From: an uncultured archaeon
Lineage (GTDB): Archaea; Aenigmatarchaeota; Aenigmatarchaeia; CG10238-14
Direction of reading: 5' to 3'
DNA: 27,382 bases
NCBI GenBank assembly: GCA_964392445.1
Contig: CAYMPD010000015.1
Location: 1-27,382 of the forward strand
Shown piece after piece: positions 3,522-25,391 of this stretch; the stretch's first letter is position 1, and each line of letters starts with the position of its first letter. The translations under genes were made by a program, and so were the position numbers. The notes beneath the pieces are model-generated. The model worked only from the letters and a program-made list of their open reading frames with translations, did not search any database and was not told the DNA's origin.

Positions 3522-3530
3522 TCAAATAAT

Positions 3531-4320: not shown

Positions 4321-4371
4321 GTAAGTTTTAAGTATATTCTTCACGAATTTTATCTTAAGAGGTAGGTTACA

Positions 4372-4893: not shown

Positions 4894-4967
4894 GGGCCTG
4901 TAGCTCAGCATGGAAGAGCAGCTGGCTTTTAACCAGTTGGCCGTGGGTTCAAATCCCTCCGGGCCCA
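4894..4967 (+). tRNA. tRNA-Lys (anticodon UUU), intronless, CCA not encoded
   Basis: Acceptor GGGCCTG/CGGGCCC, D arm GCTC/GAGC, anticodon arm GCTGG-CTTTTAA-CCAGT, T arm GTGGG-TTCAAAT-CCCTC (one U:U mismatch), discriminator A. Confidence 0.96.
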
Positions 4968-5053
4968 TACCCATTCCTATCTGGGCCCTAGCGAATATTT
5001 ATTTCTGAGAAATCGTCAAAAATGAATTTAATTCTAAAATTATATAGATTATT

Positions 5054-7780: not shown

Positions 7781-7888
7781 GAAGACAAAGGGTACATATT
7801 ATTATCTAAATCTAAAAAATCACTAGTCTAGATATTGAGGGAGACATAAATGATTTTTATATTTAAATACAATTATAGTTAGATTTGG

Positions 7889-8894: not shown

Positions 8895-8920
8895 CCATAC
8901 CTATTCTGTATTAAATTATT
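8895..8920 (+). repeat. 26-bp direct repeat, left copy (partner at 10438-10463)
   Basis: CCATACCTATT-CT-GTATTAAATTATT versus CCATACCTATT-TG-GTATTAAATTATT; 24/26 identical. Confidence 0.9.
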
Positions 8921-10523: not shown

Positions 10524-10790
10524 ATGCCCATAGATTTATTCAAATCACTATCGGATCCGACAAGGATTAAAATAATAAAGATACTACGGGGTAAAGAGAT
10601 GTGTGCTTGTGAGATACCGGAAAAAGTTAATAGAGCTCAACCAACCGTTTCTCAACATCTAAAGATACTTGAAAAATCCGGAGTTCTTCAATCAAGGAGA
10701 GACGGGAGAGAGATTTTATACAGCATAGCGGATGAGAAGGTTTTCGAACTCATTGAAATAGCAGGAAAAATTCAAAATAGAGGTGACTAG
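10524..10790 (+). CDS. arsR: ArsR/SmtB metalloregulator
   Basis: FKSLSDPTRIKI, MCACEI (alpha3 Cys site), QPTVSQHLKIL and RRDG. Confidence 0.92.
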   Translation: MPIDLFKSLSDPTRIKIIKILRGKEMCACEIPEKVNRAQPTVSQHLKILEKSGVLQSRRDGREILYSIADEKVFELIEIAGKIQNRGD

Positions 10791-11955
10791 GTTGTCAAAG
10801 TTAACAGAAATAGTCAGGAAAAATTGGGTATTATTACTTCTAGGAATATCCTATCTGATCATTTTTCTATGGCAGAATCAAATTGGTAATTTCTTGAGCC
10901 AGGAATCGGTACAAAAAACCATAGGCGGAAGTATATATCAAGGATGGTTGGGCTTAGTTGATTACCTCTCTGCTCATGTTCTAATGTGTCTTATACCCGC
11001 ATTTTTCATTGCTGGTGCGATTAATACACTGATAGACTCAAGTTCTATCATAAAATACATGAGCGGGAAGACCAAAAAATGGCTTGCTTATATTATTGCG
11101 TCTATCGGCGGATTTTTCATCCAAGTATGCTCTTGCACTATACTGCCTTTATTTGCTGGTATATGGAAGAGGGGTGCGGGGTTAGGTATAGCAACGACAT
11201 TCCTTTATGCTGGACCAGCTGTCAATGTGTTGGCGTTTGTATTGACAGGACAAAGGATAGGGTGGGATTTTGCTACAGTCAGACTAATCCTATCGATATT
11301 ATTTTCAATATTGGTTGGTTTGATAATGGAGTTTACTTTCAGGAAGGAAAAAATAGGTAAAGCAGATTTGAATTTAGACTCAAAAAAGGAAGATTCTTTG
11401 AAGGGAAGCAAAAGCAAAATATTCTGGATATTGCTGTTTGGAATCTTGATTGTCGGGACAGCACCTATCCCCAATTCAATAAAATATCCTGCTTTTTTAG
11501 CATTAACATTGGCTGAAGTTATAGTATCTTTTGTTTGGATAAAGAAAGAGGAAAGGAATGCTTGGTGGGACGAGACGATAAAGTTCACCACTGATATTAT
11601 ACCACTCCTTTTAGTTGGGGTTTTCCTTGCAGGTGCGATTACGTATCTGATACCGCAAGAGGATTTCCAGAGATTTGCAGGAAAAAACACAATAATGACA
11701 AACTTTGTCGCTGTGTTGTTTGGGGCAATAGCTTATTTCCCAGCATTGGTTGAAGTCCCTATTGCTGAAAGTTTTTTGAGTCTTGGTATGAACAGAGGTC
11801 CATTAATGGCCTATCTTCTTTCTGATCCTGTGCTGTCTATACAAGGTTTACTAATAATATCAAAAATATTGGGTACAAAAAAGACTTTAGTTTACGCTGT
11901 TAGTATTATTGTTTTAACTACTCTGGCTGGTTATTTTTTTGGTTTGATTGTCTAA
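10783..11955 (+). CDS. ArsP/DUF318-family permease (start may be TTG at 10792)
   Basis: HVLMCLIPAFFIAGAI, VCSCTILPLF, FLYAGPAVN, GPLMAYLLSDP; multi-TM; follows arsR. Confidence 0.85.
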   Translation: MTRLSKLTEIVRKNWVLLLLGISYLIIFLWQNQIGNFLSQESVQKTIGGSIYQGWLGLVDYLSAHVLMCLIPAFFIAGAINTLIDSSSIIKYMSGKTKKWLAYIIASIGGFFIQVCSCTILPLFAGIWKRGAGLGIATTFLYAGPAVNVLAFVLTGQRIGWDFATVRLILSILFSILVGLIMEFTFRKEKIGKADLNLDSKKEDSLKGSKSKIFWILLFGILIVGTAPIPNSIKYPAFLALTLAEVIVSFVWIKKEERNAWWDETIKFTTDIIPLLLVGVFLAGAITYLIPQEDFQRFAGKNTIMTNFVAVLFGAIAYFPALVEVPIAESFLSLGMNRGPLMAYLLSDPVLSIQGLLIISKILGTKKTLVYAVSIIVLTTLAGYFFGLIV

Positions 11956-11968
11956 TGGAGGTGTGAAA

Positions 11969-12199
11969 ATGAAAATAGAAGTGTTAGGTCCAGGGTGTCC
12001 GAAGTGTAAGGGACTGGAGAATAATGTCAGAAAGGCGATTGAAGATTTGAAAATTAAGGCTGAAGTGATAAAGGTTAGTGACATAAGCAGATTCGTGGAA
12101 TACGGGATTATGTCTTCCCCTGCATTGGTTGTGGATGGAAAAGTGAAAGTTTCCGGAAGAGTGCCGGATGTTGATGAAATTAAAAAATGGTTCAAGTGA
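11969..12199 (+). CDS. Small redox-active disulfide protein (thioredoxin_3/MTH895 type)
   Basis: MKIEVLGPGCPKC...YGIMSSPALVVDG; GGAGGTG RBS gives the start at 11969. Confidence 0.92.
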   Translation: MKIEVLGPGCPKCKGLENNVRKAIEDLKIKAEVIKVSDISRFVEYGIMSSPALVVDGKVKVSGRVPDVDEIKKWFK

Positions 12200-12485: not shown

Positions 12486-12839
12486 ATGGACAAAAAGAAA
12501 TTTTCTGAATGGCACGGAATAGAAAGAGAAAAAATTGATTGGCACCCGGAAGTAGATGAAGACAAATGTGTTGGTTGTGGCCTTTGTGTCACAACATGTG
12601 GGCGGGGAGTTTATAAATATGATTTTGGTGAAAAAAAGCCTAAAGTAGTCAATCCTAACAATTGCATGGTTGCATGCCAGACTTGTTCTAACTTATGCCC
12701 AGCAACAGCTATTCATTTTGCTGAAAATAACGCTACAAGAGAAAAGGTGCAAGAAATAATCAAAGATTTTAAAGTCTTGCCTGGAATTAAAGCTGAACTT
12801 GAAAAAAGAAAGGATGAACTGGGTTTTAACCAAGATTAG
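12486..12839 (+). CDS. 2x[4Fe-4S] ferredoxin
   Basis: CVGCGLCVTTC and CMVACQTCSNLCP; N-terminal WHGIEREKIDWHP. Confidence 0.92.
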   Translation: MDKKKFSEWHGIEREKIDWHPEVDEDKCVGCGLCVTTCGRGVYKYDFGEKKPKVVNPNNCMVACQTCSNLCPATAIHFAENNATREKVQEIIKDFKVLPGIKAELEKRKDELGFNQD

Positions 12840-12909: not shown

Positions 12910-13533
12910 ATGAAATACAAATTTTTCTTTATTGGTTTATTTCTTTCATTCCTTATATTTACATTTTATTTTAATTTTGAAACAACGGGAAAATTTTTAT
13001 TGAACACAAAAGAGAATGAGACTTTAAGGCTTGGGTATTGCCCCACTATGGAGAAATATGCTAACTCGATAGATAGCCAAAATAAAAATGTGGATTTATT
13101 GAAATTTGGTGATGCCTCCACAGTCATGTCGAAATTGAACTCCAAACAAATAGACGTTGCTTTGATTGGCAGAAAAGCAAGAGAGGATGAATTAGGTTCG
13201 AATCATGAAAGATTATTGAAACCCGGATTCACTCTTGTTTCACCATCAAAATATTTTATAGGATATTCCGAATTAAGGAATTTGGAAATAATTACTTATG
13301 AACACAAAGGGATAACTGAAATTTTCCCAGAATTAAATTTGGAATTCATTCAGGATAAAGCTGATGTATTTCAAGGTAGTAACATAGTGTTAATTTCATG
13401 GGAGGATTACGAAGATTTTATGGGATTGGTCATACCACTGAATGAAGACGGAACGAAAGTTGAGAAATTCAGGGCACCGATAATCTATTCTGGCGACGGG
13501 AATTTGATTGAAACAATCAAATTCAATGGTTAG
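12910..13533 (+). CDS. Membrane-anchored hypothetical protein, possible periplasmic-binding-protein fold
   Basis: N-terminal TM, then LRLGYCPTM...SKLNSKQIDVALIGRKA, a PBP2-like pattern. Confidence 0.55.
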   Translation: MKYKFFFIGLFLSFLIFTFYFNFETTGKFLLNTKENETLRLGYCPTMEKYANSIDSQNKNVDLLKFGDASTVMSKLNSKQIDVALIGRKAREDELGSNHERLLKPGFTLVSPSKYFIGYSELRNLEIITYEHKGITEIFPELNLEFIQDKADVFQGSNIVLISWEDYEDFMGLVIPLNEDGTKVEKFRAPIIYSGDGNLIETIKFNG

Positions 13534-14005
13534 GTGAAAGTATTTTTGAGAACTTTTTTGTAAGCCTTATCATGTTGGTCTTTCCATGAGGTTCCTTGTC
13601 GACTATACCCCTCAATTCTAGATCCTTTAGGGTTCTATGGACTTTTACCGCGCCTAATTCCGAGGAGAGCTTGCTCTGTGTTATTTTACCACCGTTTTCT
13701 ACTATCATTCTTATTAATTTGGCTTCTTCATGCGTTAAAAGGTCTATTAACGCCCTAGTATCTTTTACATATTTTCCTCTGTACTTCTCAATTTTTGGAA
13801 AAAGAAGGTAATAAACAATCGAGCCGACAAAAATTCCCAATGAAGATAATGTCGGTATCAGAATGGGTATGGGTAGTGTACAGCTACATACCTGTCCTTG
13901 AGAAACATGTGTCTGGGCATATAATGTGCTGAAAGAAACACCAAAGACAAACCCAGTTAATAAAATTGTCACGATTAAAACATTTCCAATCGGTTTCATA
14001 ATCAT
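13523..14005 (-). CDS. Two-TM membrane-anchored winged-helix transcription regulator
   Basis: Two hydrophobic segments with VCSCT between them; C-terminal ENGGKITQSKLSSELGAVKVHRTLKDLELRGIV (wHTH). Confidence 0.78.
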   Translation of the reverse strand: MIMKPIGNVLIVTILLTGFVFGVSFSTLYAQTHVSQGQVCSCTLPIPILIPTLSSLGIFVGSIVYYLLFPKIEKYRGKYVKDTRALIDLLTHEEAKLIRMIVENGGKITQSKLSSELGAVKVHRTLKDLELRGIVDKEPHGKTNMIRLTKKFSKILSPNH

Positions 14006-14122
14006 AATCTTTCTTTCGTTTATTTAAATATATTATTATGGAAAAAATTAGCCAATTTTTTTGATTTCATTTTTTGAAACATAACTTTATATATGATTTC
14101 AGACTATTCTAAAAAGATAAAA

Positions 14123-15919
14123 ATGATAGATAAACGATGGATAGTAATTTTATTGTCGATTCTAGGCATTATTCTAGGCATTGTTATAGGTTTGTTATTA
14201 TTTTCAGATATTGTGTTTTCAGAAACGCAAAATAGAGTTGTCGTATATTTCTTCTGGGGAGATGGGTGCCCTCATTGCGCTGCTGAAAAACCTTACTTAG
14301 AAGAATGGCAGAAAAAATATGGCGATGATATAGAAGTAAAGATGTTTGAAACATGGAAGAACCCAGAGAATGTGCCTTTATTTCAGGAGGTTGCACAAGC
14401 TTATGGAATCCAGGCAAGAGGAGTTCCAACAACATTTATTGGTGAAAAAAACTGGGTTGGATTTTCTTCATCAATGGCACCAGAAATGGAACAGTATATT
14501 GAAGAGTGTATTGAAAATGGTTGTGAGGATAAAGCAAAAGATGTTTTTAATGAGTTTCAAAATGAAGATAATTCAGAAGAAATTTCAGAAGAAAATCAAG
14601 GTGATGAATTATGTCTACATGTTTTTTTAAAAGAGGAATGTCCCCAGTGTAAGAATATAGAAAATTATCTTGGGGAGCTGAGTGAAAAATATAGTATTGA
14701 AATTGATAAATATAATGTAAAAGAAAGCGAAGATAAGGAATTATTTCAACAATTTAAAGAAAAATATGGTTTAGAAGCAGATTTATATCCTGCTATTTTT
14801 ATAGGAAACAAATATATTTTAGGTGAAGAGCCAATAAAAACAGCACTTGAGAGCGAGATTGAAACATGTCTGGAAGAGGGTTGTCCTTGCCCCCTATCTA
14901 AAGTAAAACCTTTTACACCAGTAGGAACCAAACCAGAAGATGTGAGTTCTGATGAAGAACAAGTTATAAAAATTCCTTTGATTGGAGAAATAGATTTATC
15001 TTCTATGTCTATGGTTGTTGTTACAGCTTTAATTGCTTTTGTAGATGGATTTAATCCTTGTTCTTTATGGGTGCTTACATTTTTGCTAGGGATAGTAATA
15101 TATACCCGTTCTAGAAAAAAAATATTCATTGTAGGAGCAACCTTTTTATTGGTAACTACTTCAGCATATGGTATTTTCATGACAGGGTTAGTTAGTGTTT
15201 TTTCTTATGTGGGCTATACATTTTGGATTAAACTTGCAGTAAGTCTTATAGCCTTGTTATTTGCAATTGTTAATATAAAGGATTATTTCTGGTACAAAAA
15301 AGGATTATCTTTTACTATATCAGATAAACATAAACCTAGAATGTTCAAAAAAATAAGAGACATCATGGATCCAAATAAATCTACTTTAAGCATGATGATT
15401 GCTACAGCATTAATGGCGCTTGGGATAGTATTAATCGAAATTCCTTGTACAGCAGGATTCCCTGTGATTTGGACAAATATTTTGGCAGAAAATAATGTTG
15501 TTGGTAACACATTTTTTATGTTACTTGCTTTATACCTGATAATTTATCTTCTTGATGAATTAACTGTTTTTATAGCAGCAACAATTACTTTGCAAGCGAG
15601 CAAATTCGAAGAAAAACATGGAAGAATATTGAAGTTGATTGGAGGACTTATAATGTTAGCCTTAGCAATTTCATTGTTGTTTTTCCCTGAAATTATGAAT
15701 TCAATTCTTGGATCAATATATGTGTTTGGTATTGCAATCATAGTTTCTTTTATTATAATATGGATTCATAGAAAAATCCTACCAAAATATGGAATAAAGA
15801 TTGGGACAGAAGAATTAAAAAATAAATCACTAAATAAAAAAGAGGGAAATATGGAAACCCCCTCTCAAAAGAAAAATATTAAGAAAAATGAAATTAAGGA
15901 GGAGGAGGAAAATGACTGA
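14123..15919 (+). CDS. Trx-Trx-CcdA/DsbD-like fusion (membrane thiol:disulfide transfer protein)
   Basis: N-terminal TM; CPHC and CPQC thioredoxin domains; CPCP linker; membrane domain with DGFNPCSLW and EIPCTAG. TTTATATA at 14086-14093 favours the ATG at 14123 over 14093. Confidence 0.85.
   Translation: MIDKRWIVILLSILGIILGIVIGLLLFSDIVFSETQNRVVVYFFWGDGCPHCAAEKPYLEEWQKKYGDDIEVKMFETWKNPENVPLFQEVAQAYGIQARGVPTTFIGEKNWVGFSSSMAPEMEQYIEECIENGCEDKAKDVFNEFQNEDNSEEISEENQGDELCLHVFLKEECPQCKNIENYLGELSEKYSIEIDKYNVKESEDKELFQQFKEKYGLEADLYPAIFIGNKYILGEEPIKTALESEIETCLEEGCPCPLSKVKPFTPVGTKPEDVSSDEEQVIKIPLIGEIDLSSMSMVVVTALIAFVDGFNPCSLWVLTFLLGIVIYTRSRKKIFIVGATFLLVTTSAYGIFMTGLVSVFSYVGYTFWIKLAVSLIALLFAIVNIKDYFWYKKGLSFTISDKHKPRMFKKIRDIMDPNKSTLSMMIATALMALGIVLIEIPCTAGFPVIWTNILAENNVVGNTFFMLLALYLIIYLLDELTVFIAATITLQASKFEEKHGRILKLIGGLIMLALAISLLFFPEIMNSILGSIYVFGIAIIVSFIIIWIHRKILPKYGIKIGTEELKNKSLNKKEGNMETPSQKKNIKKNEIKEEEEND
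14246..14518 (+). repeat. 273-bp perfect direct repeat, copy 1
   Basis: Base-for-base identical to 16471-16743; encodes YFFWGDGCPHC...ECIEN (91 codons). Confidence 0.97.
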
Positions 15920-16325
15920 AAACAATTTCCCAAAGGATTTGAAATATAACAAAGATTATTCATGGATTAAAATTGAAAAAGAGACTACAACTGTAGGAGT
16001 CATAGAATCTGCTACAAAAAAAGTTAAAGAGTTTGTTTTCATTAAACTCCCTGAAAAAGGCAAAAAAATTAGTCAGGGAGAAAAATATGTTTCTTTAGAA
16101 GCAGTCAAGTGGTCTGGTCATTTATCAAGTCCTGTTTCAGGGGAGATTATTGATGTGAATGATTCATTGTTTGCTGAACCATCTAAAATAAATAAAGACC
16201 CTTATGAAAGTTGGATAATGAAAGTTAGAGTGGATAACACGAAAGATTTAGAAGAATTAATGGATCCAGAAGAGGCAACTAAATTTTATGAAAAAAAATT
16301 GAAAGGAGGTAATAAAAGTGAATAA
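15912..16325 (+). CDS. GcvH-like lipoyl carrier protein (LbpA-like)
   Basis: LKYNKDYSW, FVFIKLP, SLEAVKWSGHLSSPVSGEIIDVN, INKDPYESWI; lipoyl-Lys codon at 16107-16109; GGAGGAGG RBS. Confidence 0.9.
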   Translation: MTENNFPKDLKYNKDYSWIKIEKETTTVGVIESATKKVKEFVFIKLPEKGKKISQGEKYVSLEAVKWSGHLSSPVSGEIIDVNDSLFAEPSKINKDPYESWIMKVRVDNTKDLEELMDPEEATKFYEKKLKGGNKSE

Positions 16326-16773
16326 AAAATATATCTATATAGGAATTGGAATTTTGGTTTTAGCTGTTGCGAGTATTTTAGTCTTTTCTAATGGAAATAA
16401 TCAGAACATAACTGGAGATGTTGTCTTAGGAAATTCTGATTTAATTGGTGATCCAGACAAAGTAACAATTTATTTCTTCTGGGGAGATGGGTGCCCTCAT
16501 TGCGCTGCTGAAAAACCTTACTTAGAAGAATGGCAGAAAAAATATGGCGATGATATAGAAGTAAAGATGTTTGAAACATGGAAGAACCCAGAGAATGTGC
16601 CTTTATTTCAGGAGGTTGCACAAGCTTATGGAATCCAGGCAAGAGGAGTTCCAACAACATTTATTGGTGAAAAAAACTGGGTTGGATTTTCTTCATCAAT
16701 GGCACCAGAAATGGAACAGTATATTGAAGAGTGTATTGAAAATAAATGCGAAAGTCCATTAAATGGAGTGTAA
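16318..16773 (+). CDS. Membrane-anchored thioredoxin/glutaredoxin (CPHC)
   Basis: GTG start with a GGAGGT RBS; N-terminal TM; Trx domain identical to that of the fusion protein. Confidence 0.88.
   Translation: MNKKYIYIGIGILVLAVASILVFSNGNNQNITGDVVLGNSDLIGDPDKVTIYFFWGDGCPHCAAEKPYLEEWQKKYGDDIEVKMFETWKNPENVPLFQEVAQAYGIQARGVPTTFIGEKNWVGFSSSMAPEMEQYIEECIENKCESPLNGV
16471..16743 (+). repeat. 273-bp perfect direct repeat, copy 2
   Basis: Identical to 14246-14518; offset 2225 bp. Confidence 0.97.
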
Positions 16774-16819
16774 GATTATGAAAGCTTTATTCTGTTTGAA
16801 GAATTTGAGGTGATATAAA

Positions 16820-17056
16820 ATGACTGAGAAACCAAATGCTACAATTGACGTGAGAGGGGAAATATGTCCTTATCCGGACATAAAGGCAAGAAAAAAGCTG
16901 AAGGAGATGGAGTCGGGTGAGATTCTTGAAATTCTCACAGACTATCCATTATCGCTTGAGAGGATTCCCAGGAGCGCAGAAAAGGAAGGGCATAAAGTTC
17001 TTATTGTTGAGAAAATAGACGGAGCAGATCACAGGATTTTAATAAAGGTGAAATAA
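16820..17056 (+). CDS. tusA: TusA/YeeD-family sulfur carrier
   Basis: IDVRGEICPYPDI (CPxP motif) and GEILEILTD. Confidence 0.93.
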   Translation: MTEKPNATIDVRGEICPYPDIKARKKLKEMESGEILEILTDYPLSLERIPRSAEKEGHKVLIVEKIDGADHRILIKVK

Positions 17057-17057
17057 G

Positions 17058-18071
17058 ATGATTGCAGCAACAGGAATTATCAGTGGGTTATTTGTAGGGT
17101 TGATTTTCGGGTTTGTGTTACAGAGAGGAAGATTCTGCATGAATTCAGCATTCCGAGACCCATTGGTATTCAAAGATTTTACCCTCTTAAAGGCAGTAGC
17201 ATTAGCATTGATTATCCAGATGATTGGATTTCATTTCCTTTCATATTTAGGAATTATAACCCTTGCTCCAAAAACATTCTATCTGATTGGTGCTATTACT
17301 GGAGGATTTATATTTGGGATTGGCATGGTGATTGCAGGAGGTTGCGCTAGTGGTACAGCCTATCGAGTGGGGGAAGGTATGGTAAGCTCTATGCTGGCTT
17401 TGTTTTCATTTGCATCAACTGCTTTCTTTTTTAAGGATGGATTCTTGTCAAATATTACAGAATCTATTTATCAATTTGATTTAGGGAAAATAACTTTAGC
17501 ATCCTTGACAGGGGTTCCAAACTGGATTTTTGTCATTATATTTTCAGTAATCGGATTTTACTTTCTATTCAGGAAAAGGGAGCATGCTACTGAAAAAAAT
17601 AAGTCTTTTTTTGAAAAGATGTTTAAGACAGGATGGACGTGGAAGGTTACAGGGACAATCATAGGACTCATAGGGATAGCTGGTTTTGTTGCTTCTGCTT
17701 TTACGGGCAGAAATTATCCTTTAGGCATCACTATGGGGTTTGAAACAATCGTAAAATCAATTGCTACAGGAAGAAACTTTCTGACATGGGAATCTTTTGA
17801 AGTCATTGGCTTAATATTTGGGGCTTTTATTGCAGCATTGATAGCCAATGAGTTTAAAATAAGAATACCTCCAATAAAGATGGGCATGCAAGCATTTTTT
17901 GGAGGAATATTACTTGGTGTGGGTGCTGTGATTGCTGACGGATGCAACATAGGACATATCTTGAGCGGAGTTCCGCAGTTGGCTATAAGTAGCATTGTTG
18001 CAGGAACATTCATCGTGATTGGGGCCTGGAGCACTGCATATTTTATGTTTATGAGAGGTGAAAAACAATGA
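17058..18071 (+). CDS. yeeE: YeeE/YedE-family sulfur-compound (thiosulfate) transporter
   Basis: QRGRFCMNSAFRD, GMVIAGGCASG and DGCNIGH: the three conserved Cys loops; multi-TM. Confidence 0.92.
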   Translation: MIAATGIISGLFVGLIFGFVLQRGRFCMNSAFRDPLVFKDFTLLKAVALALIIQMIGFHFLSYLGIITLAPKTFYLIGAITGGFIFGIGMVIAGGCASGTAYRVGEGMVSSMLALFSFASTAFFFKDGFLSNITESIYQFDLGKITLASLTGVPNWIFVIIFSVIGFYFLFRKREHATEKNKSFFEKMFKTGWTWKVTGTIIGLIGIAGFVASAFTGRNYPLGITMGFETIVKSIATGRNFLTWESFEVIGLIFGAFIAALIANEFKIRIPPIKMGMQAFFGGILLGVGAVIADGCNIGHILSGVPQLAISSIVAGTFIVIGAWSTAYFMFMRGEKQ

Positions 18072-18412
18072 AACTAGGATTGATGCTTATAAGACCACCG
18101 TACACTTATCAGGATCTTGATACAGCTTATCATTTAACAAAGGCAGCATTGGAAAAGAATCATGAAGTCAAAATTTTTCTTTACGTTGACAGCGTAATTG
18201 TAGCAAACAAAGAGATAAACTCTGGTAGCGAAAGAAATCTTGCAAAAAAGTTCGGTGAATTGACAAAATTGGGTGTTGAAGTAAAGATCTGCGGTGTCTG
18301 CGTCCAATACAGAGGTATTAAAAGAAGCCAGCTTATAGAAAAGGGAGAGCTTGAAGGCCTCCCGGGGCTCGCAGATTTAATCAAGGAATGCGACAAATTC
18401 GTAAGTATATGA
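18068..18412 (+). CDS. dsrE: DsrE/TusD-like sulfurtransferase
   Basis: RPPY, KIFLYVDSV, KICGVCVQYRG and LIKECDKFVS. Confidence 0.85.
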   Translation: MKLGLMLIRPPYTYQDLDTAYHLTKAALEKNHEVKIFLYVDSVIVANKEINSGSERNLAKKFGELTKLGVEVKICGVCVQYRGIKRSQLIEKGELEGLPGLADLIKECDKFVSI

Positions 18413-18421
18413 GGTGTTAAA

Positions 18422-18772
18422 ATGAAAAAAGTGCTATTAATAGTTAATAGGGCTCCTTTTGGAAGCGTTTTTGCGGCAGAGGCGCTGAGGGCAGGCATTG
18501 CTTTTGCAGGCATGGACTTAGAGACAAAGCTCCTTTTTGCAGACGATGGGGTGTTTTGCCTTTTAAAAGACCAGCATCCAGAAATTGCTCAAATGACCAG
18601 CTTGGGAGAAGGATTTAGCAATGCTGGGGAGTTCGGGCTGAAAATATTTGCCGATACAGAGTCCATATCTGAAAGGAATCTTAAAAATGATAGCTTGATT
18701 GAGGTGAAACAAGTAACCAAGCAACATATAAGGGACTTCATTGATGAGGCTGAAGCAATCATTAATTTTTGA
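18422..18772 (+). CDS. dsrF: DsrF/TusC-like protein
   Basis: RAPFGS...EALR, FADDGVFCLLKDQ and DTESISERNL. Confidence 0.85.
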   Translation: MKKVLLIVNRAPFGSVFAAEALRAGIAFAGMDLETKLLFADDGVFCLLKDQHPEIAQMTSLGEGFSNAGEFGLKIFADTESISERNLKNDSLIEVKQVTKQHIRDFIDEAEAIINF

Positions 18773-18782
18773 GGTGAAAAAA

Positions 18783-19058
18783 ATGGTATTATTCATAATA
18801 AAAGAATCTTTGCTGAGAGGAGAACCCAGCATGATTAAGTATTTGAATCCTAAAGACAAGGTGTTGCTGATACAGGACGGGGTGCTGATATTGAATAGGA
18901 GCGATTCGGGCATTCAATTTCTCAAAGAAAAAGAGGCTGAAGTATTGGCATTGAAAGAAGACCTGGAGCTTCGAGGAATCCAGAATAATGCAGGGGTCAA
19001 ACTTATTGATTATCAGGGTTTTGTTGAATTGATTGAAAATGAGAAGGTGTTTTCTTGA
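18783..19058 (+). CDS. dsrH: DsrH/TusB-like protein
   Basis: DKVLLIQDGV, ALKEDLELRG and IDYQGFVELI; start moved to ATG 18783 behind a GAGGTG RBS. Confidence 0.88.
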   Translation: MVLFIIKESLLRGEPSMIKYLNPKDKVLLIQDGVLILNRSDSGIQFLKEKEAEVLALKEDLELRGIQNNAGVKLIDYQGFVELIENEKVFS

Positions 19059-19900
19059 AGATGTCTGCGCTAGAAAACATTCAGATTCCTGAATATGATA
19101 GAACAGAATATGTGAAAACTAAAAAGATGATAGAACAAAATAATTTGACAACTGTGTGTATTGAGGCAAACTGCCCCAACAGATACGAATGTTTTTCAAA
19201 AAAGACTGCTACATTTATGATATTGGGGGATACATGTACAAGAAACTGTCTTTACTGCAACGTCAAAAGCGGTATGCCAAGAAAGGTTGATACTAATGAG
19301 CCAGTAAGAATCGCTAAAGTAATTAAGAAAATGAATTTAAAATATGCAGTAATTACTTGTGTTACAAGGGATGATCTTCCTGACGGTGGAGCAGGACAGT
19401 TCGTCAATATAATAAAAGAAATCAGGAAGTTAAACCCTAATTGCAGAATTGAAGTGCTAATTTCCGATCTTAAAGGAGACTGGAATTCACTGGAAGAAAT
19501 AATCGATGAAAAGCCAGATGTATTAAACCACAACATAGAAACTGTAAGGGGATTGTTCCCTGAATTAAGGCCAGAGGGAGATTACAATACTTCCATGAAA
19601 TTGTTAAAAAAAGCAAAAGAATTTAGTTCGGGTCTAATAACAAAGTCAGGATTTATGCTGGGATTTGGAGAGACTGGAGCGCAAATAACAGAAACCCTGA
19701 AAGACCTGAAGAAAGTTCAATGCGATATCGTTACAGTCGGCCAGTATCTGCAGCCAAGCGAAAAAGAATTTCAAATGAAGAAGCAGTATACAACCGAGGA
19801 ATTCAAAGAGATTGAAGAAAAAGCCAAAGAATTGGGAATAAAACGGGTTGTTTCAGGCCCGTTGGTAAGAAGCTCTTATAAGGCAGGGGATGTTATATGA
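19055..19900 (+). CDS. lipA: Lipoyl synthase (start TTG 19055 or ATG 19061)
   Basis: CIEANCPNRYEC (CX4CX5C), CTRNCLYC (CX3CX2C), RDDLPDGGA, NHNIETV, GQYLQP and RSSY. Confidence 0.97.
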   Translation: MKMSALENIQIPEYDRTEYVKTKKMIEQNNLTTVCIEANCPNRYECFSKKTATFMILGDTCTRNCLYCNVKSGMPRKVDTNEPVRIAKVIKKMNLKYAVITCVTRDDLPDGGAGQFVNIIKEIRKLNPNCRIEVLISDLKGDWNSLEEIIDEKPDVLNHNIETVRGLFPELRPEGDYNTSMKLLKKAKEFSSGLITKSGFMLGFGETGAQITETLKDLKKVQCDIVTVGQYLQPSEKEFQMKKQYTTEEFKEIEEKAKELGIKRVVSGPLVRSSYKAGDVI

Positions 19901-20343
19901 AGATGTTAAATATTTACAAATTCTTTTCTCTGGCCTTGATGCTTGCTGGCGTGGTATATATTTCTGGGTGCATTCAGAATACAGGTACATATGGAAACGG
20001 AACTCTTGGCATTGAAATCGCCATGCTCACAACGGATAAAAACACCTACGGTTCCCATGAGGACATGAAGGTTTCTGTCCTTATCAGGAGTTCAAAAAGC
20101 TTTGAAAATGTGACCGTAAGTCTGTCCGGAATAAAGCCGTATAACCACGCTTATGTAAAAGAATCAAAAATCGTGAATCTCTTCCAAGGCGAGAATGAGA
20201 TAGTGTTTTATGTAAAAACGCCTTACTGTACTTCTGGCTGCGGGGGCGTCTATCCCGGTCCATATGACATTAACGCGGAAATACTGATAAATGGAGAGCA
20301 GGTCGCCAATTCCAGTACAAAAGTAAACCTAGTAGGTGATTAA
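19897..20343 (+). CDS. Predicted lipoprotein with a beta-sandwich-like domain and a CxxxC motif
   Basis: Hydrophobic signal ending in SGC lipobox; PYCTSGCGG; sequons NGT, NVT and NSS; overlaps the lipA stop (ATGA). Confidence 0.7.
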   Translation: MKMLNIYKFFSLALMLAGVVYISGCIQNTGTYGNGTLGIEIAMLTTDKNTYGSHEDMKVSVLIRSSKSFENVTVSLSGIKPYNHAYVKESKIVNLFQGENEIVFYVKTPYCTSGCGGVYPGPYDINAEILINGEQVANSSTKVNLVGD

Positions 20344-20357
20344 TAGGGGTATAGAAA

Positions 20358-21113
20358 ATGAATGAATGGAGATTACTAAAATTAAGAGAGGACAGCGGGG
20401 CGATGCAGATGGCAATAGATGAGGCTATACTTATTGCACGATCAAAAAACTCAGTTCCAAATACTTTGAGATTTTTTACGTGGAATCCTCCGTGCTTGAC
20501 AATTGGTTATTTCCAGTCTCTTCAGAAGGAAGTTGATGTCAAAAATGCAGAAAGGCAGGGAGTGGATATAGTGAGAAGATATACTGGTGGAGGGGCAGTT
20601 TTTCATGATAAGGAACTGACATATTCATTAGCAATCTCTGAGGATAATGTTCCGCAGGATATTGTTGCATCATATCAGAAAATATGTTCTGCCATAATAA
20701 ATGGTTTGAAGAATTTGAATATCAATTCTAAGTTTAAACAGATAAATGATATAGTCGTCAATGGAAAAAAAATTTCTGGGAGTGCTCAGACAAGAAAAGA
20801 AGGTGTTGTCTTGCAGCACGGAACCATTCTTATTGATTTGGATATAAAGAAGATGTTTTCTCTTCTAAAAGTTCCAGATGAAAAGATAAAAGATAAGATG
20901 ATAAAGAGTGTTGAAGAAAGGGTAACTTCATTGAAGAAAGAACTTGGTAGAAACGTAACGCTTGAAGAGCTCAAGAAATCATTAAGAAGTGGATTTGAAC
21001 AAATTTTTGATATAGAATTTGTAGGTGGAGAATTGACTTCTAAAGAAATTAAGACTGCGGAAAGATTATATGAAGAAAAATACTCAACAAAAGGGTGGAA
21101 TCATTGGCGATGA
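20358..21113 (+). CDS. lplA: Lipoate-protein ligase catalytic subunit
   Basis: QMAIDEAIL, LRFFTW, RRYTGGGAVFHD, NDIVVNGKKISGSAQ and LQHGT. Confidence 0.93.
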   Translation: MNEWRLLKLREDSGAMQMAIDEAILIARSKNSVPNTLRFFTWNPPCLTIGYFQSLQKEVDVKNAERQGVDIVRRYTGGGAVFHDKELTYSLAISEDNVPQDIVASYQKICSAIINGLKNLNINSKFKQINDIVVNGKKISGSAQTRKEGVVLQHGTILIDLDIKKMFSLLKVPDEKIKDKMIKSVEERVTSLKKELGRNVTLEELKKSLRSGFEQIFDIEFVGGELTSKEIKTAERLYEEKYSTKGWNHWR

Positions 21114-21394
21114 AAAAGCATATTGATTATAAGGTACCAAATGGAAAACTAATACGAGTTGATTTAGAATTAGAGAATAACATAATAGAAAAAATAAAAA
21201 TTACTGGAGATTTTTTTATTCATCCTGAAGAATCAATAATACTCATAGAAAATTCCTTGAAAGGAACCAATGTTAAAGATTGTGGTAAAACTATAAGAAA
21301 AGTCATTGGACTCAACAAAATAAAACTCATTGGACTATCAGAAAGAGATTTAGAAATAGTATTAACGAATGTTTCTGAGGACGATATGAAGTGA
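21110..21394 (+). CDS. lplB: Lipoate-protein ligase accessory (C-terminal domain) subunit
   Basis: YKVPNGKLIRV and IKITGDFFIHPEE; ATG 21110 overlaps the lplA stop. Confidence 0.88.
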   Translation: MKKHIDYKVPNGKLIRVDLELENNIIEKIKITGDFFIHPEESIILIENSLKGTNVKDCGKTIRKVIGLNKIKLIGLSERDLEIVLTNVSEDDMK

Positions 21395-24081
21395 AATGGC
21401 ACAGTCTACCTAAAGAAAAAGTGATTAAACAACTTAATACAGATTCTGATAATGGTTTAAGTGATAGTGAAGTAAGGGAAAGAATCAGCAAGTATGGTAA
21501 GAATAGAATTGATAAGGAAAAACACTCGTCCAAGTTACAAATATTTTTTAGGCAGTTTAAATCTCCTTTGATTTACATTCTTATTATAGTTGCTGTTATC
21601 GTATTTTTTCTGGAAGATTATCCGAGGAGCTTACTTGAAAGTGGATTTATACTAGCTTCGGTCTTGATAAATTCTATGTTTGGGTTTTGGGAGGAGAACA
21701 AAGCGTCTAGGACCTTTGAAAAACTCAAAGAAATACTTAAAACAGAGACAATAGTCATTAGAAATGGAAATAAGAGGGTTGTTCTTCAGGAAGAAATCGT
21801 ACCAGGAGATATAATTGTTTTAAGTTCCGGAGACAAAGTACCTGCTGATGGGAGATTAATAGAAGTACAGGATCTTAAAATTTCTGAGGCAGTTTTGACT
21901 GGTGAATGGCTCCCTACTGGGAAGATAGTCGATCCTTTACACGAGAATACAGCACTAGCTGAACGGGATAACATGGTTTATGCAGGATGTTTAGTAAAAG
22001 GGGGAGAAGGAAAATTTGTTGTTACGGCTACAGGAACGAACATGGAAACAGGTAAAATTGCGGATATGGTTGATAAAACAAAAGAAGAAAAAACACCTCT
22101 TCAAAAGAAAATATCTAGTTTCAGTCAGATAACTGGTATTGCTATTCTGGTAATCACCATCTTAATTTTTATCGGTGGTTTAATACGTGGAAATGATCTT
22201 GTTGAGATGTTTGAGACAGCTTCTGCTATCGCTGTGGGGGGTATACCTGAAGCTTTACCTATAATCATGACTTTAACTTTGGCAATAGGAATGGAAAGAT
22301 TGTCAAAAAAACAGGGATTAATTAGGCGACTTTCTTCTGTGGAAACTTTGGGCTCTACTACAGTGATATGTTGTGACAAGACAAAAACACTTACCCTGGG
22401 TGAGATGGAACCTCACAAAGTTGTCACCTTGGAAAATAATTTTACGGTGGATAAAGAAGTCAATAGTCAAGTTTATCTTTCAGTTGTTAGAACAGCCACC
22501 CTCTGCAATGAAGCTTTTGTTGAAAATCCAGAAAAAACTCCTGAAAAGTGGAAAATAAGAGGTACACCCACTGATAAAGCTCTATTTTTAAGTGGACTTA
22601 GGTCAGGAATTATAAAATCGGAATTGGAAGAAGAATTCTCTTTGGTTAAACGAGTTTCATTTGATTCTTCATTGAGATATCAGGCTGGTTTGTATGAGAA
22701 AAACGGTAAAACATTTTTGTATGTAGCTGGGGCACCCAAAGAAATCATAAAAAATTCGGGTTTTGTAAAATTAGAGAAGGAGACCAAAAAAATCAACTCT
22801 AAAGTCTCTAAGAAATTAGATTCAAAAGTTGATAATTTGACTGAAAAAGGAGAAAGAGTGATAGCATTCGGGTACAGACAAATTAAAAAATCTGAAATGG
22901 GTAAAGACCCAAAAGAATTGGTAGATGAACTTACTTTTACGGGTTTTCTTAGTATAAAAGATCCTTTAAGAAAGGATGTTAAAAAAGCTCTAAAGACGGC
23001 TAAACAGGCTGGATTGAGATTGATAATCATAACTGGTGATCACAAAAAGACGGCTAAATCTGTTGCCGAAGAATTGGGGATGCTAATAAAAGAAGAAAAT
23101 ATCCTTGAGGGAAGTCAATTAGATGAAATGTCTGATCAGGAGTTTGTGGGTATCGTGGAGAAAATAAAAATTTATGCTAGGGCAGAACCTAGACACAAAA
23201 TGAGAATAGTAGATGCTTGGCAGGATAAAGGTGAAGTTGTGGCTATGACTGGAGATGGTGTGAATGATGCCCCTGCATTGAAAAAGGCTGATATAGGAAT
23301 TGCCGTTGGTTCTGGGACTGAAGTGGCAAAGCAAACATCTGATCTGGTTTTACTGAACGACAGTTTTGACATTATTGTTAAGGCGGTAGAAGAAGGTAGA
23401 ACAATATTAAACAATCTGAGAAAAGCGATTAGTTATGTAATGGCAGATTCATTTACTACTGTGGTTTTGGTTGGGAGCAGCTTAATAGCTGGACTACCTT
23501 TACCCATATTATGGACACAAATACTTTGGAATAATGTTGTTGAGGATACATTACCAAATATTGCGTTTGCTTTCGAATCGAAAGAAAAAGATACTATGAA
23601 AAGAAAACCAACATCTAGGAAAAATTCGATACTTACAAAAGAGATGAAAGTGCTTATATTTGCTACTGGTCTGATAGATCAGATATTAGCTTTAGCACTT
23701 TTCTGGATTCTTTGGGGGAAATTAGGTTTAAATCTCAAATATGCAAGAACAATGACTTTTGGTGCTATTTGTATAGATACAGCTTTTGTAATTTATTCTT
23801 ATAAAAACCTGAAAAGGAATATTTGGGAAATTGATCTTTTTGATAATAGATTATTACTTTTATCTTCGTTATTAGTTCTGTTATTTTTTGCAGGGGCTGT
23901 CTATTTGTCCATATTTCAAAATTTACTTCAAACAGTGCCTTTGGGTTTGAGGGATTGGCTTATCCTGATAGTGATGGCTATAGTATCTACGCTATTGATT
24001 GAAGTTACTAAGTGGTTTTTTATTACCAAAAATAGGAAAGAGTATAGAAGAATCGAAGATAAAGAAGATTTATTTGCCTAG
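21391..24081 (+). CDS. Type II P-type cation ATPase with atypical motifs
   Basis: Full-length A/N/P/TM architecture; TGEW, PEAL, DKTKT, TGDH and GDGVNDAPALKKAD; GTG start overlaps the lplB stop. Confidence 0.9.
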   Translation: MKWHSLPKEKVIKQLNTDSDNGLSDSEVRERISKYGKNRIDKEKHSSKLQIFFRQFKSPLIYILIIVAVIVFFLEDYPRSLLESGFILASVLINSMFGFWEENKASRTFEKLKEILKTETIVIRNGNKRVVLQEEIVPGDIIVLSSGDKVPADGRLIEVQDLKISEAVLTGEWLPTGKIVDPLHENTALAERDNMVYAGCLVKGGEGKFVVTATGTNMETGKIADMVDKTKEEKTPLQKKISSFSQITGIAILVITILIFIGGLIRGNDLVEMFETASAIAVGGIPEALPIIMTLTLAIGMERLSKKQGLIRRLSSVETLGSTTVICCDKTKTLTLGEMEPHKVVTLENNFTVDKEVNSQVYLSVVRTATLCNEAFVENPEKTPEKWKIRGTPTDKALFLSGLRSGIIKSELEEEFSLVKRVSFDSSLRYQAGLYEKNGKTFLYVAGAPKEIIKNSGFVKLEKETKKINSKVSKKLDSKVDNLTEKGERVIAFGYRQIKKSEMGKDPKELVDELTFTGFLSIKDPLRKDVKKALKTAKQAGLRLIIITGDHKKTAKSVAEELGMLIKEENILEGSQLDEMSDQEFVGIVEKIKIYARAEPRHKMRIVDAWQDKGEVVAMTGDGVNDAPALKKADIGIAVGSGTEVAKQTSDLVLLNDSFDIIVKAVEEGRTILNNLRKAISYVMADSFTTVVLVGSSLIAGLPLPILWTQILWNNVVEDTLPNIAFAFESKEKDTMKRKPTSRKNSILTKEMKVLIFATGLIDQILALALFWILWGKLGLNLKYARTMTFGAICIDTAFVIYSYKNLKRNIWEIDLFDNRLLLLSSLLVLLFFAGAVYLSIFQNLLQTVPLGLRDWLILIVMAIVSTLLIEVTKWFFITKNRKEYRRIEDKEDLFA

Positions 24082-24209
24082 AAATAGATATATAATGGTT
24101 AAAAGTGAGTCAAGAAAATAAATGAAAATGTCAGGGGATTTGGGAATCCATTCGGAAAGGTATAAAAGAGAAAAATTCCAAAGTAATTGTGTTGTTGTTA
24201 GGTGATGAA

Positions 24210-24680
24210 ATGAGTGAAATGGAGGTAAAGATTAACAAAAAGTTATTTATAGGCATTGTAATAGGTATTTTAATTCTGGTATTTTTCATCCCCAAGTATT
24301 TGACAAAATCAGGATCGATGGTGGAAGTTGCAAGTAACAGCAATGTTGAGAAAGTTGAGATATACCATTTTCATGGTACTCACCAATGCTATTCTTGCAT
24401 AACTGTGGGGGCATATGCCGAAGAGACCATCAATACTTATTTCACTGACGAGCTGAAATCTGGAAGAATAGTTTTTGACCATATCAATGGTGAACTACCT
24501 GAAAACGGTGATCTTGTAAAAAAGTACGGCGCAACGGGTTCTTCTCTCTGGATAGGTGTTTACGATGAGAATGGATTTCATGCAGAAGAAAACACAAATG
24601 TTTGGTACAAAATAAATGACAAAGACGACTATATGCAGTACCTGAAAGGGGTAATCGAAAAGAAGTTGGAGGGTAATTAG
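24210..24680 (+). CDS. arsF: ArsF-family thioredoxin-fold protein (membrane-anchored, CxxC)
   Basis: TM, then VEIYHFHGTHQCYSC; GGTGA RBS supports ATG 24210. Confidence 0.72.
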   Translation: MSEMEVKINKKLFIGIVIGILILVFFIPKYLTKSGSMVEVASNSNVEKVEIYHFHGTHQCYSCITVGAYAEETINTYFTDELKSGRIVFDHINGELPENGDLVKKYGATGSSLWIGVYDENGFHAEENTNVWYKINDKDDYMQYLKGVIEKKLEGN

Positions 24681-25391
24681 ATGGGGATAATGGGTTTTAT
24701 GGAAGCTATGGGAACACACAATTTTCCATTGATTGCGGCTTTTTTTATAGGATTGATGACAGCTATTAGCCCGTGCCCAATGGCTACAAACATAACAGCG
24801 ATTGCTTATGTATCCAAAAAGCTGGACAAGGAAAAGAAAACTTTGCTTGTTGGATTGAGTTATACACTAGGAAGGATGTTGACATATATTCTGATTGCAT
24901 CAACCATAGTTTATATCGGCGTAAATGTACAGACTATATCTTTATTCCTACAAAAATATGGGGAAAAAGCACTGGGTCCGCTCTTGATTTTCTTTGGTGT
25001 CGTAATGCTGGATATAATTAAAATTAATATTGGCAAAAAGAGTGAAAGGATTGAAATGCTAAAGGAGAAGTTATCAGAAAAAGGTTATGTTGGAAGTTTT
25101 CTTTTGGGAGTTATCTTTGCACTGGCTTTCTGTCCGTTCAGTGGTGTGTTATTCTTTGGGATGTTAATTCCACTTGCACTAAAATTTTCTGACGGTTTAT
25201 TAATTCCTTCTGTATTTGCGTTTGCTACAGGGCTGCCCGTGATAATCTTTTCATTTATATTGGTCTATAGCATATCAAAGTTAGGTACTATAATGGATAA
25301 GGTTCAGAGAGTTGAAAGATGGACAAGAATTTCTGTTTCCATAATTTTTATTTTGGTTGGGATTTATTATATAGTGAAGCTGTTTTTGTGA
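24681..25391 (+). CDS. arsG: ArsG/CcdA-like membrane protein
   Basis: GLMTAISPCPMATN, YTLGR and LAFCPFSGVLFFG; follows arsF with zero gap. Confidence 0.75.
   Translation: MGIMGFMEAMGTHNFPLIAAFFIGLMTAISPCPMATNITAIAYVSKKLDKEKKTLLVGLSYTLGRMLTYILIASTIVYIGVNVQTISLFLQKYGEKALGPLLIFFGVVMLDIIKINIGKKSERIEMLKEKLSEKGYVGSFLLGVIFALAFCPFSGVLFFGMLIPLALKFSDGLLIPSVFAFATGLPVIIFSFILVYSISKLGTIMDKVQRVERWTRISVSIIFILVGIYYIVKLFL

Follow-up and report, generated by a model that had tools for sequence, protein, structure and literature searches.

What use does a metabolically stripped archaeon have for a lipoyl carrier protein and a full private set of lipoylation enzymes when none of the enzyme complexes that employ lipoate is found in its genome? 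Lipoate is familiar as a swinging arm in five enzyme complexes, and sHdr sulfur oxidation has lately joined the list. The question is raised by contig C15 (27,382 bp; the whole of it is referred to here as the window) of the 1.215-Mb assembly (54 contigs, 94.9% complete) of an uncultured member of the Aenigmatarchaeota, in which a GcvH-type carrier and its lipoylation genes share one operon with exported thioredoxins, a two-cysteine membrane protein (here called TGM) and the TusA-YeeE-DsrEFH sulfur relay. Part of the answer is plain: the module is a conserved accessory system of DPANN archaea and of bacteria of the candidate phyla radiation (CPR), and the window holds its sulfur-relay variant. 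As to function, we give about an even chance to the reading that lipoyl-GcvH would act as the cytoplasmic dithiol hub of a membrane relay, coupled in this genome to sulfane-sulfur chemistry.

The operon comprises 13 open reading frames (ORFs) between 14093 and 24081, labelled here from Pfam and NCBIfam model matches. All lie on the + strand, and successive gaps of -8, -8, 46, 1, -4, 9, 10, -4, -4, 14, -4 and -4 nt (hence spacings of -8 to +46 nt) bear out the first-pass annotation's description of 13 co-oriented, tightly packed genes:

14093-15919, + strand: TGM, 608 aa, with an anchor, an exported thioredoxin domain (CPHC), an exported glutaredoxin-like domain (CPQC) and a membrane domain of about 7 helices (Thioredoxin_2 and Glutaredoxin)
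15912-16325 (alternative start 15888), + strand: orphan GcvH-type lipoyl carrier (PF01597, 3.6e-35)
16318-16773, + strand: anchored exported thioredoxin, CPHC (Pfam thioredoxin match)
16820-17056, + strand: TusA-family sulfur carrier, Cys16 in CPxP (PF01206, 5e-24)
17058-18071, + strand: YeeE/TsuA-family sulfur-compound transporter (PF04143, 1.5e-85; NF052577, 2e-91)
18068-18412, + strand: DsrE/TusD-like subunit (PF02635, 4e-23)
18422-18772, + strand: DsrF/TusC-like subunit (TIGR03010, 1e-18; PF02635)
18783-19058 (alternative start 18741), + strand: DsrH/TusB-like subunit without Cys (PF04077, 3e-19)
19055-19900, + strand: canonical lipoyl synthase LipA (TIGR00510, 339 bits, over cut-off)
19897-20343, + strand: small exported or lipoprotein-like protein, 148 aa, with a signal or anchor and Cys25 (no family)
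20358-21113, + strand: lipoate-protein ligase catalytic subunit LplA (PF21948, 1.6e-59)
21110-21394 (alternative start 21095), + strand: lipoate-protein ligase small subunit LplB (NF053749, 75 bits, over cut-off)
21391-24081, + strand: P-type IIA ATPase (Pfam/NCBIfam)

Given the 94.9% completeness of the assembly, absences from this genome are strong, not absolute, and they are numerous. An inventory of lipoyl-domain enzymes returned one lipoyl protein only: GcvH is the sole GCV_H/lipoyl domain in the whole 1.2-Mb genome. It has the GCV_H fold and the lipoyl-lysine; its P, T and L partners were not found in the genome, nor was any glycine cleavage, 2-oxoacid dehydrogenase or sHdr system that might use it. 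At the level of families, searches across the genome found no 2-oxoacid_dh (E2), GDC-P, GCV_T or Pyr_redox_dim, and likewise no DsrC/TusE and no NIR_SIR (DsrAB-type sulfite reductase). The absence of GcvP/T, 2-oxoacid dehydrogenase, dihydrolipoamide dehydrogenase, sHdr and DsrAB, noted at first for the window, thus holds there and extends to the whole genome. Classical use in glycine cleavage or in a 2-oxoacid dehydrogenase is ruled out by this genome-wide absence of partners. An sHdr complex elsewhere is ruled out too, since the genome's sole CCG protein, on contig C22 (L005), is LutA and not sHdrB, as shown by an adjoining LUD/Fer4 protein (LutB). On the same contig, at 2308-6642, the LutB-like and LutA-like genes have NUDIX and HAD genes and a 411-aa ORF matching no Pfam family between them, and the amino-acid permease next to the Lut genes is seemingly split into two ORFs (7362-8186 and 8203-8640). 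DsrE-family genes occur in the operon's cluster only. Because the inventory is empty of clients, lipoyl carrier and sulfur relay alike stand without any known client. Elsewhere the genome does encode cysteine desulfurases (392 bits on C47), a TrxR-like protein and, on C1, a PP-loop ATPase with a weak match to tRNA_Me_trans (MnmA-type family).

The cluster is also foreign to its lineage. Searches of 40 genomes from its genus, family or order turned up neither a GcvH homologue nor a YeeE-family gene. Identity of the contig's ribosomal protein S8e to its counterparts is 70-81% inside the genus and drops to 45-54% over the order as a whole, which tracks the lineage and rules out a mis-binned contig. 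As the 40 relatives do not have the cluster, yet the contig belongs to the lineage, the cluster is an acquired accessory island in this genome. Its parts differ in base composition, the sulfur block having a GC fraction of 0.39 (top 3% of genome windows) versus 0.32 for TGM-GcvH-thioredoxin.

A scan of GTDB species genomes gave 80 related loci in DPANN archaea and CPR bacteria, which were annotated by BLASTP with proteins of the window and of sister loci. Woese-, Pace-, Nano- and Aenigmarchaeota, as well as CPR bacteria, commonly have GcvH homologues with 55-77% identity. TGM stands directly 5' of GcvH in essentially all 80 loci; after GcvH there is usually an exported thioredoxin (archaea) or a Redoxin-type thioredoxin (CPR), and the operon ends with LipA, in some loci a small C111-x3-C115 protein, LplA and LplB. 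What varies is the cassette in the slot between the exported thioredoxin and LipA. Among the first three GcvH homologues whose neighbourhoods were read, one had the window's exact gene order (L011/L017) and two had a Pyr_redox flavoprotein instead of TusA-YeeE-DsrEFH. The same alternation runs through the 70 of the 80 loci in which the cassette could be scored: a flavoprotein without the sulfur block in 44, the sulfur block without a flavoprotein in 15, and both in 2. The concern that the arrangement might be a chance mosaic peculiar to one genome did not materialise, as it recurs in at least 15 others. The first-pass annotation had also supposed the combination to be undescribed; full-text literature searches found no description of it, but it is not unique, being a variant of a widespread DPANN/CPR module.

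Pyr_redox_dim flavoproteins are missing altogether from the window's genome and from 11 of the 12 other genomes with the sulfur variant, so that the block genuinely takes the flavoprotein's place. The exchange has happened repeatedly: when TGM membrane domain and GcvH are combined in a maximum-likelihood tree (62 rows, quick search), at least 5-6 cassette switches are needed. The window's nearest relative on that tree (L038, 80% identity) is a flavoprotein variant. Per-gene identities show the operon to be a mosaic: between the window and L017, L018, L022, L026 and L027, the sulfur blocks share 71-94% identity and the TGMs only 36-53%. The flavoprotein itself has as its best NCBIfam matches CoA-disulfide reductase (CoADR) and H2O-forming NADH oxidase (Nox; the latter at E 1e-57 to 1e-62) and carries a single invariant cysteine, Cys42, in YSPCALPY. 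The label Lpd for this sister-locus protein is therefore ruled out in favour of a CoADR/Nox type. Eleven loci, each a flavoprotein variant, have an AhpD-like CMD protein directly 3' of GcvH, which by analogy would provide a reductive precedent within the module family. A TrxR-like gene was found in 13 of 13 sulfur-variant and 16 of 16 flavoprotein-variant genomes tested, and the idea that the lipoyl system replaces a missing thioredoxin reductase is ruled out for all 29. In 5 further scorable loci the slot is filled by DUF169 (PF02596) alone. DUF169 is seen in the slot of L025, L068, L071, L077 and others, its proteins having three invariant cysteines and a fourth that is 86% conserved; it could provide redox input of a third type and perhaps binds an Fe-S cluster.

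The lipoyl-lysine codon of GcvH lies at 16107-16109, within EAVKWSGH, and lysine and motif are invariant across homologues in a family alignment with a mean column identity of 65%. The protein scores 129 bits with NF002270 (over cut-off) and 107.6 bits with TIGR00527 (under the cut-off of 115.85). LipA has the CX4CX5C motif of the auxiliary cluster, the radical-SAM CX3CX2C and a C-terminal RSSY, all read in translation, and scores 32 bits with the LipS2 model against a cut-off of 270. The split archaeal ligase is present as both LplA and the separate small LplB. The protein encoded between LipA and LplA (19897-20343) has an invariant C111-x3-C115, and counterparts occupy this position in 10 related loci. 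N-terminal anchors are predicted for both thioredoxin proteins, for this C111-x3-C115 protein and for the upstream exported protein described below (h207), and none for GcvH, TusA, DsrEFH, LipA or LplAB, a topology in keeping with the hub reading.

TGM brings in an unclassified membrane family. Hydropathy and positive-inside charges place the N-terminus of TGM in the cytoplasm, its thioredoxin and glutaredoxin-like domains outside, and about 7 helices before a Lys-rich cytoplasmic tail. Two membrane cysteines, in FNPC and EIPCTAGFP, are at least 90% conserved (FNPC) and invariant (ELPCTAGFP in the family at large) among 38 sequences; both stand next to proline at breaks in predicted helices, one per domain half. 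The TGM and GcvH reading frames overlap by 8 nt and are translationally coupled. By analogy, TGM would on paper be a DsbD-type protein in function. The first-pass annotation had called it Trx-Trx-CcdA, of which the first thioredoxin stands, the second domain proves glutaredoxin-like, and CcdA is not borne out by sequence and only weakly by fold. Over its C-terminal 300 residues the protein hits nothing in Pfam or NCBIfam, and a Foldseek search with the membrane-domain model returned nothing from the Protein Data Bank (PDB) at E<=0.001. The AlphaFold model (pLDDT 79.6) aligns in VIA-align with the nuclear magnetic resonance structure of CcdA, 5VKV, over 202 of 224 residues (Z 7.6, root-mean-square deviation 4.6 Å). 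Kinship with CcdA/DsbD is thus not indicated by sequence, and by modelled fold it is only weakly supported. A predicted complex of the membrane domain with GcvH scored 0.01, which speaks neither for nor against binding. In public data a profile search finds the membrane family in 4205 clusters at 50% identity (E<=0.001), 831 of them at E<=1e-30. N-terminal extensions vary across the family, and one member (P0242) has a fused ZnuA metal-binding domain.

The two exported thioredoxin domains are bound together by their history. Within the window, 14246-14518 (the TGM domain) is identical over 273 bp to 16471-16743 (the stand-alone protein). In L020, L023, L027, L028, L040 and L054 the same gene pair is 96-100% identical over 278-308 bp, while at other loci the two are 70-87% identical or give shorter matches or none. 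An assembly artefact is unlikely, as these six loci come from other, independent assemblies. The pattern points to gene conversion that has recurred between the pair of exported CPHC domains, and such repeated homogenisation would argue that they serve the same partner.

The sulfur block, too, has invariant cysteines. Cys16 of TusA and Cys 27, 96 and 296 of YeeE are invariant, and the three-cysteine YeeE adjoins the CPxP TusA-like protein; because YeeE scores 307 bits with NF052577, under the equivalog cut-off of 400, its membership is at family level only. DsrE-, DsrF- and DsrH-family subunits are all present, DsrH without cysteine and DsrE with its active-site Cys75. Canonical TusD/DsrE proteins have a single active cysteine; here Cys75-x-x-Cys78, as well as Cys108, is invariant in 17 sequences, and the CxxC suggests resolution of a Cys75 persulfide into a disulfide. 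A word-based search found only 23 relatives in the DsrE clade, nearly all on module contigs, so that the clade appears dedicated to the module. Its nearest outgroup, 46% identical and with the CxxC kept, lies on an ENA metagenome contig (L099:998-5251) in a free-standing cluster of TusA-YeeE-DsrE(CxxC)-DsrF-DsrH followed by an ArsR-TusA fusion regulator and, after it, a flavoprotein of the Lpd type with CxxxxC (GGTCTNWGCIPTK). As this flavoprotein is a true Lpd type, the sulfur block outside the module partners a dithiol:NAD(H) enzyme, and the cluster may represent a separate, NADH-linked system for sulfane sulfur. Inside the module, the sulfur block has no dithiol carrier within reach other than lipoyl-GcvH.

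These features may be assembled into a scheme. Lipoyl-GcvH would swap reducing equivalents with the membrane cysteine pair of TGM, and hence with the exported thioredoxin and glutaredoxin-like domains, and the cassette would tie this hub to a second redox pool, namely NAD(P)H in the flavoprotein variant and sulfane sulfur in the window's. In the latter, YeeE and TusA would carry thiosulfate or polysulfide sulfur over the membrane onto Cys16 of TusA; the sulfur would pass to Cys75 of DsrE, Cys78 would resolve the persulfide into a disulfide, and the Cys75-Cys78 disulfide would exchange with the lipoyl dithiol. In its broad form, the proposal that lipoate works here outside carbon catabolism, in sulfane-sulfur handling or envelope thiol redox, was made in the first-pass annotation and probably stands, glycine cleavage, 2-oxoacid dehydrogenase and sHdr systems not having been found.

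The direction of electron flow is a separate matter. That dihydrolipoyl-GcvH is the reductant freeing sulfide from imported sulfane sulfur falls, in our estimate, a little short of an even chance. That sulfide or sulfane chemistry instead reduces lipoyl-GcvH, replacing NAD(P)H as electron source for an outward relay, is possible but rather unlikely. For outward reduction speak the AhpD-like variants, the low potential of lipoate, the reductive habit of CoADR enzymes and the behaviour of every characterised DsbD/CcdA. For inward flow speak the well-known reduction of persulfides by dihydrolipoate and the dominance of the DsbA-type CPHC motif among exported domains. If the sulfur block is a consumer, candidate sources of reductant are the upstream ferredoxin, TrxR with thioredoxin, or TGM itself. 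If it is a supplier, the scheme needs sulfide to attack a disulfide, in the way that opens the sulfide:quinone reductase reaction, and YeeE to export. In that form the target of sulfide would be a strained disulfide, either that of the lipoyl dithiolane or that between Cys75 and Cys78 of DsrE; the resulting sulfane sulfur would leave by way of DsrEFH, TusA and YeeE, and the two electrons left on lipoyl-GcvH would be exported through TGM. We consider this decidedly unlikely; if true, it would be a quinone-free, flavin-free use of sulfide for the reduction of cell-surface thiols in ultra-small archaea and bacteria.

Several observations weigh against the hub reading. The cassette is optional, since 4 of the 70 scorable loci have none, and counts over related loci are not independent. 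For TGM, residues 301-608 match neither DsbD_TM (PF02683) nor DsbD_2 (PF13386) of Pfam at E<=1, 10 diverse family members gave no Pfam family for the membrane domain, a TGM profile found no match among PDB sequences, and hhalign against the ArsG/DsbD_2 alignment gave a probability of 0.3%; the CcdA fold match ranks only ninth, and unrelated helical proteins score as high. CPHC, found in 46 of 63 TGMs and 41 of 48 stand-alone thioredoxin or Redoxin proteins, is a DsbA-type motif typical of oxidases, so that outward reduction is not assured. Neither role of the sulfur block is free of difficulty: as a consumer it sits in an operon that shows no source of reducing power, and as a supplier it would run YeeE and TusA in opposition to their characterised role in import (PMC11073785). 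The link between the sulfur variant and ferredoxin, described next, offers 4 pairs only for a paired test.

The genes on either side of the operon widen the system and bring in other readings:

10524-10790, + strand: ArsR/SmtB-type regulator with CxC (Cys27, Cys29; NCBIfam HTH_metalloreg, 6.8e-28)
10783-11955, + strand: ArsP_1-family permease (PF03773, 3.4e-70)
11948-12199, + strand: small MTH895/ArsE-family thioredoxin-like protein (TIGR00412, 109 bits, over cut-off)
12486-12839, + strand: 2x[4Fe-4S] ferredoxin with 8 invariant Cys (Pfam Fer4 families)
12910-13533, + strand: anchored exported protein with a type-2 periplasmic-binding-protein fold (h205/h207/h218 family; alignment and model)
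13523-14005, - strand: membrane-anchored winged-helix regulator (DUF7343) with two transmembrane segments (PF24034, 6e-9)
24189-25391, + strand: ArsF-family protein and ArsG/DsbD_2-family membrane protein (NF040494 and NF040495 over cut-off; PF13386, 5e-22)

Among loci with enough upstream DNA, the ferredoxin occurs in 7 of 9 sulfur-variant versus 1 of 27 flavoprotein loci; with only four independent contrasts, the link is suggestive, not proven. The protein at 12910-13533 has no Pfam match. Its AF2 model (pLDDT 91) resembles PstS-like and LysR effector domains in Foldseek (E 7e-9), and its family, aligned over 31 loci, keeps C44, T46, G87, R88, E94, T129, W164, R188 and Y193 invariant, Cys44 (in GYCPTM) standing at the start of the first helix. 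The DUF7343 regulator lies directly 5' of TGM in 27 archaeal loci, with a CxC between its transmembrane helices (Cys40 and Cys42, 97% conserved), and ArsR, found in 28 related loci, has an alpha-3-site CxC whose cysteines are 86-90% conserved. The system reaches upstream to take in the ferredoxin, the exported Cys-bearing protein of binding-protein fold and two CxC regulators. Where the first-pass annotation set its limits, the genes of 14093-21394 belong, the partners from 12486 had been left out, and the P-type ATPase does not qualify: near the module in only 4 of 80 loci, it is no conserved part, although in the window its gene shares 4 nt with LplB. The ATPase has DKTKT in place of the normal phosphorylation motif DKTGT. 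The ArsF-family protein, with an N-terminal anchor, and ArsG/DsbD_2 form a second putative membrane thiol pair that recurs in many loci. Further upstream, at 8911-10331 on the - strand, an AbiEii toxin (PF08843, 1e-33) and an AbiEi-like antitoxin run opposite to their neighbours in the lowest-GC stretch of the contig.

Four other explanations share much of this evidence. The same parts might work oxidatively, the CPHC domains oxidising surface thiols and passing electrons inward via TGM to lipoyl-GcvH, with NAD(P)+ or O2 (through the Nox/CoADR flavoprotein) or imported sulfane sulfur, released as H2S, as the final acceptor, in a quinone-free stand-in for DsbB or VKOR. The exported domains are indeed mostly CPHC, the flavoprotein and sulfur block that alternate in the slot can each oxidise a dithiol, E3 oxidises dihydrolipoyl groups in every known lipoyl enzyme complex, the reduction of persulfides by dihydrolipoate is established from rhodanese and 3-mercaptopyruvate sulfurtransferase assays, and the flavoprotein's NADH oxidase matches would fit. 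The textbook potentials of lipoyl groups (about -290 mV), NAD (-320 mV) and S0/H2S (-270 mV) lie, however, far below the roughly -120 mV of DsbA-type proteins; the AhpD-like variants imply lipoyl as reductant, characterised enzymes of the CoADR family run reductively, and the source habitats, by record titles, mostly appear anoxic. On balance an oxidative role is improbable. We are more doubtful still that the sulfur genes merely supply LipA, thiosulfate sulfur passing via TusA and DsrEFH to rebuild its auxiliary [4Fe-4S] cluster with no redox link to GcvH or TGM. The 4-nt overlap of the DsrH stop with the LipA start is in keeping with such supply, as are the presence of LipA in 13 of 13 complete sulfur-variant versus 22 of 28 flavoprotein loci and the sulfur-variant-linked ferredoxin, a plausible reductant for a radical-SAM enzyme. 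Elsewhere, however, the block fills the slot of a flavoprotein behind which LipA follows equally closely, the genome has the ordinary cysteine desulfurases already mentioned, a transporter and four relay proteins are a large outlay for one lipoylated protein, and the invariant CxxC of DsrE suggests redox resolution over plain transfer.

The flanks invite a reading in terms of toxicant defence, equally hard to credit, in which the island from 10.5 to 25.4 kb would protect against arsenite, organoarsenicals and soft metals, with dihydrolipoyl-GcvH as vicinal-dithiol trap or carrier and the bound species handled by TGM, the permeases and the exported Cys proteins. The vicinal dithiols of lipoate are a classic target of arsenicals, ArsR has the alpha-3 CxC site, ArsP_1, ArsE-, ArsF- and ArsG-family genes stand beside the module in about 32 of 80 loci, exported h207 combines a phosphate-binding-protein fold with an invariant cysteine, and ZnuA is fused to the family member P0242. 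Yet the Ars-type names are family transfers only, ArsA, ArsB, ArsC, Acr3 and ArsM were not identified in the island, many module loci have no Ars-like flank, and the sulfur-relay and flavoprotein cassettes would be left with no obvious role. Finally, the sulfur genes might simply hitch-hike beside an unrelated lipoyl operon, serving only tRNA thiolation or general sulfur assimilation. TusA and TusBCD form the tRNA-thiolation relay of E. coli, YeeE/YeeD imports thiosulfate for assimilation (PMC11073785), and the PP-loop ATPase on C1 has its weak tRNA_Me_trans match. Set against this, TusE/DsrC was not found in the genome, the block is found in none of the 40 relatives, the DsrE clade is nearly confined to module contigs, and in at least 15 loci, in both domains of life, the block sits inside the operon between thioredoxin and LipA, all of which makes mere hitch-hiking highly improbable.

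The implications of the hub reading, should it be true, are considerable. Metabolically stripped organisms without the familiar lipoate complexes have retained a lipoyl protein along with a complete lipoylation set of its own and have always paired it with an unclassified two-cysteine membrane family. In lipoyl-GcvH, transmembrane thiol relays would then gain a cytoplasmic donor or acceptor of a new kind and TusA/DsrEFH sulfur relays a new client, and together these might explain how CPR and DPANN cells, quinone-less and respiration-less, manage their surface thiols in sulfidic habitats. The natural swaps of the cassette (flavoprotein, sulfur relay, DUF169) are ready comparisons for biochemistry.

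How, then, does the module stand to systems already known? A full-text literature search, whose coverage left out most subscription journals, turned up no account of the module from DPANN or CPR organisms, and it is apparently undescribed. DsbD/CcdA (E. coli DsbD, Bacillus CcdA with ResA/StoA, pneumococcal CcdA-Etrx-MsrAB2) likewise combines exported thioredoxin-fold domains with a polytopic membrane domain in which two conserved cysteines stand by proline in a broken helix; TGM differs in that no match to that sequence family was found, in its N-terminally fused thioredoxin and glutaredoxin domains, about seven helices and CPHC, and above all in that its gene-coupled cytoplasmic partner is lipoyl-GcvH, not a thioredoxin. 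The Lpd-DlaT-AhpD-AhpC peroxidase relay of Mycobacterium tuberculosis, reportedly described by Bryk et al. in Science in 2002, shares the reduction of a thiol protein by protein-bound dihydrolipoate and finds an echo in the AhpD-like CMD protein of the 11 related flavoprotein loci, whereas the window has no AhpD-like protein or flavoprotein, its carrier is GcvH rather than an E2, and its relay is tied to a membrane protein. A spare GcvH-type carrier with its own ligase is also seen in the GcvH-L/LplA2/SirTM operon of Staphylococcus aureus, which is stress-linked and serves redox defence rather than glycine cleavage (PMC12440151); the window has no SirTM or macrodomain and no E2 clients, and adds membrane and sulfur-relay genes.

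On the sulfur side, YeeE/YeeD (TsuA/TsuB; PMC11073785) provides the pairing of a three-cysteine YeeE with an adjoining TusA-like CPxP protein, but in the window the pair is followed by DsrEFH in a lipoyl operon, and an assimilatory role is not evident in these reduced genomes. The yeeE-tusA-dsrEFH unit (YTD, type II) is a known relay of sulfate reducers, disproportionators and cable bacteria, with a transporter, TusA and DsrEFH proposed for import and relay of sulfane sulfur (PMC13293266). The window's DsrE, DsrF and DsrH are all recognised by Pfam; unlike YTD, it has no DsrC/DsrAB acceptors, an extra DsrE cysteine that makes a CxxC, and a lipoyl-operon setting. In the sHdr-LbpA system (PMC6067878; PMC11094781), too, a GcvH-like carrier and dedicated lipoylation genes lie beside TusA and DsrE-family sulfurtransferases; in Aquifex TusA co-purifies with DsrE proteins and the lipoate-binding LbpA (PMC11094781), and YeeE-like importers occur near the genes in some organisms (PMC11582611). 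The window differs in its canonical LipA in place of LipS1/LipS2, in having no sHdr complex, in a relay of the DsrEFH/TusBCD type rather than DsrE3, in its membrane thiol relay, and in hosts that are fermentative ultra-small cells, not sulfur oxidisers. None of these closest systems joins a lipoyl carrier to a membrane thiol relay; the module that does so is built of known families and one unclassified membrane family.

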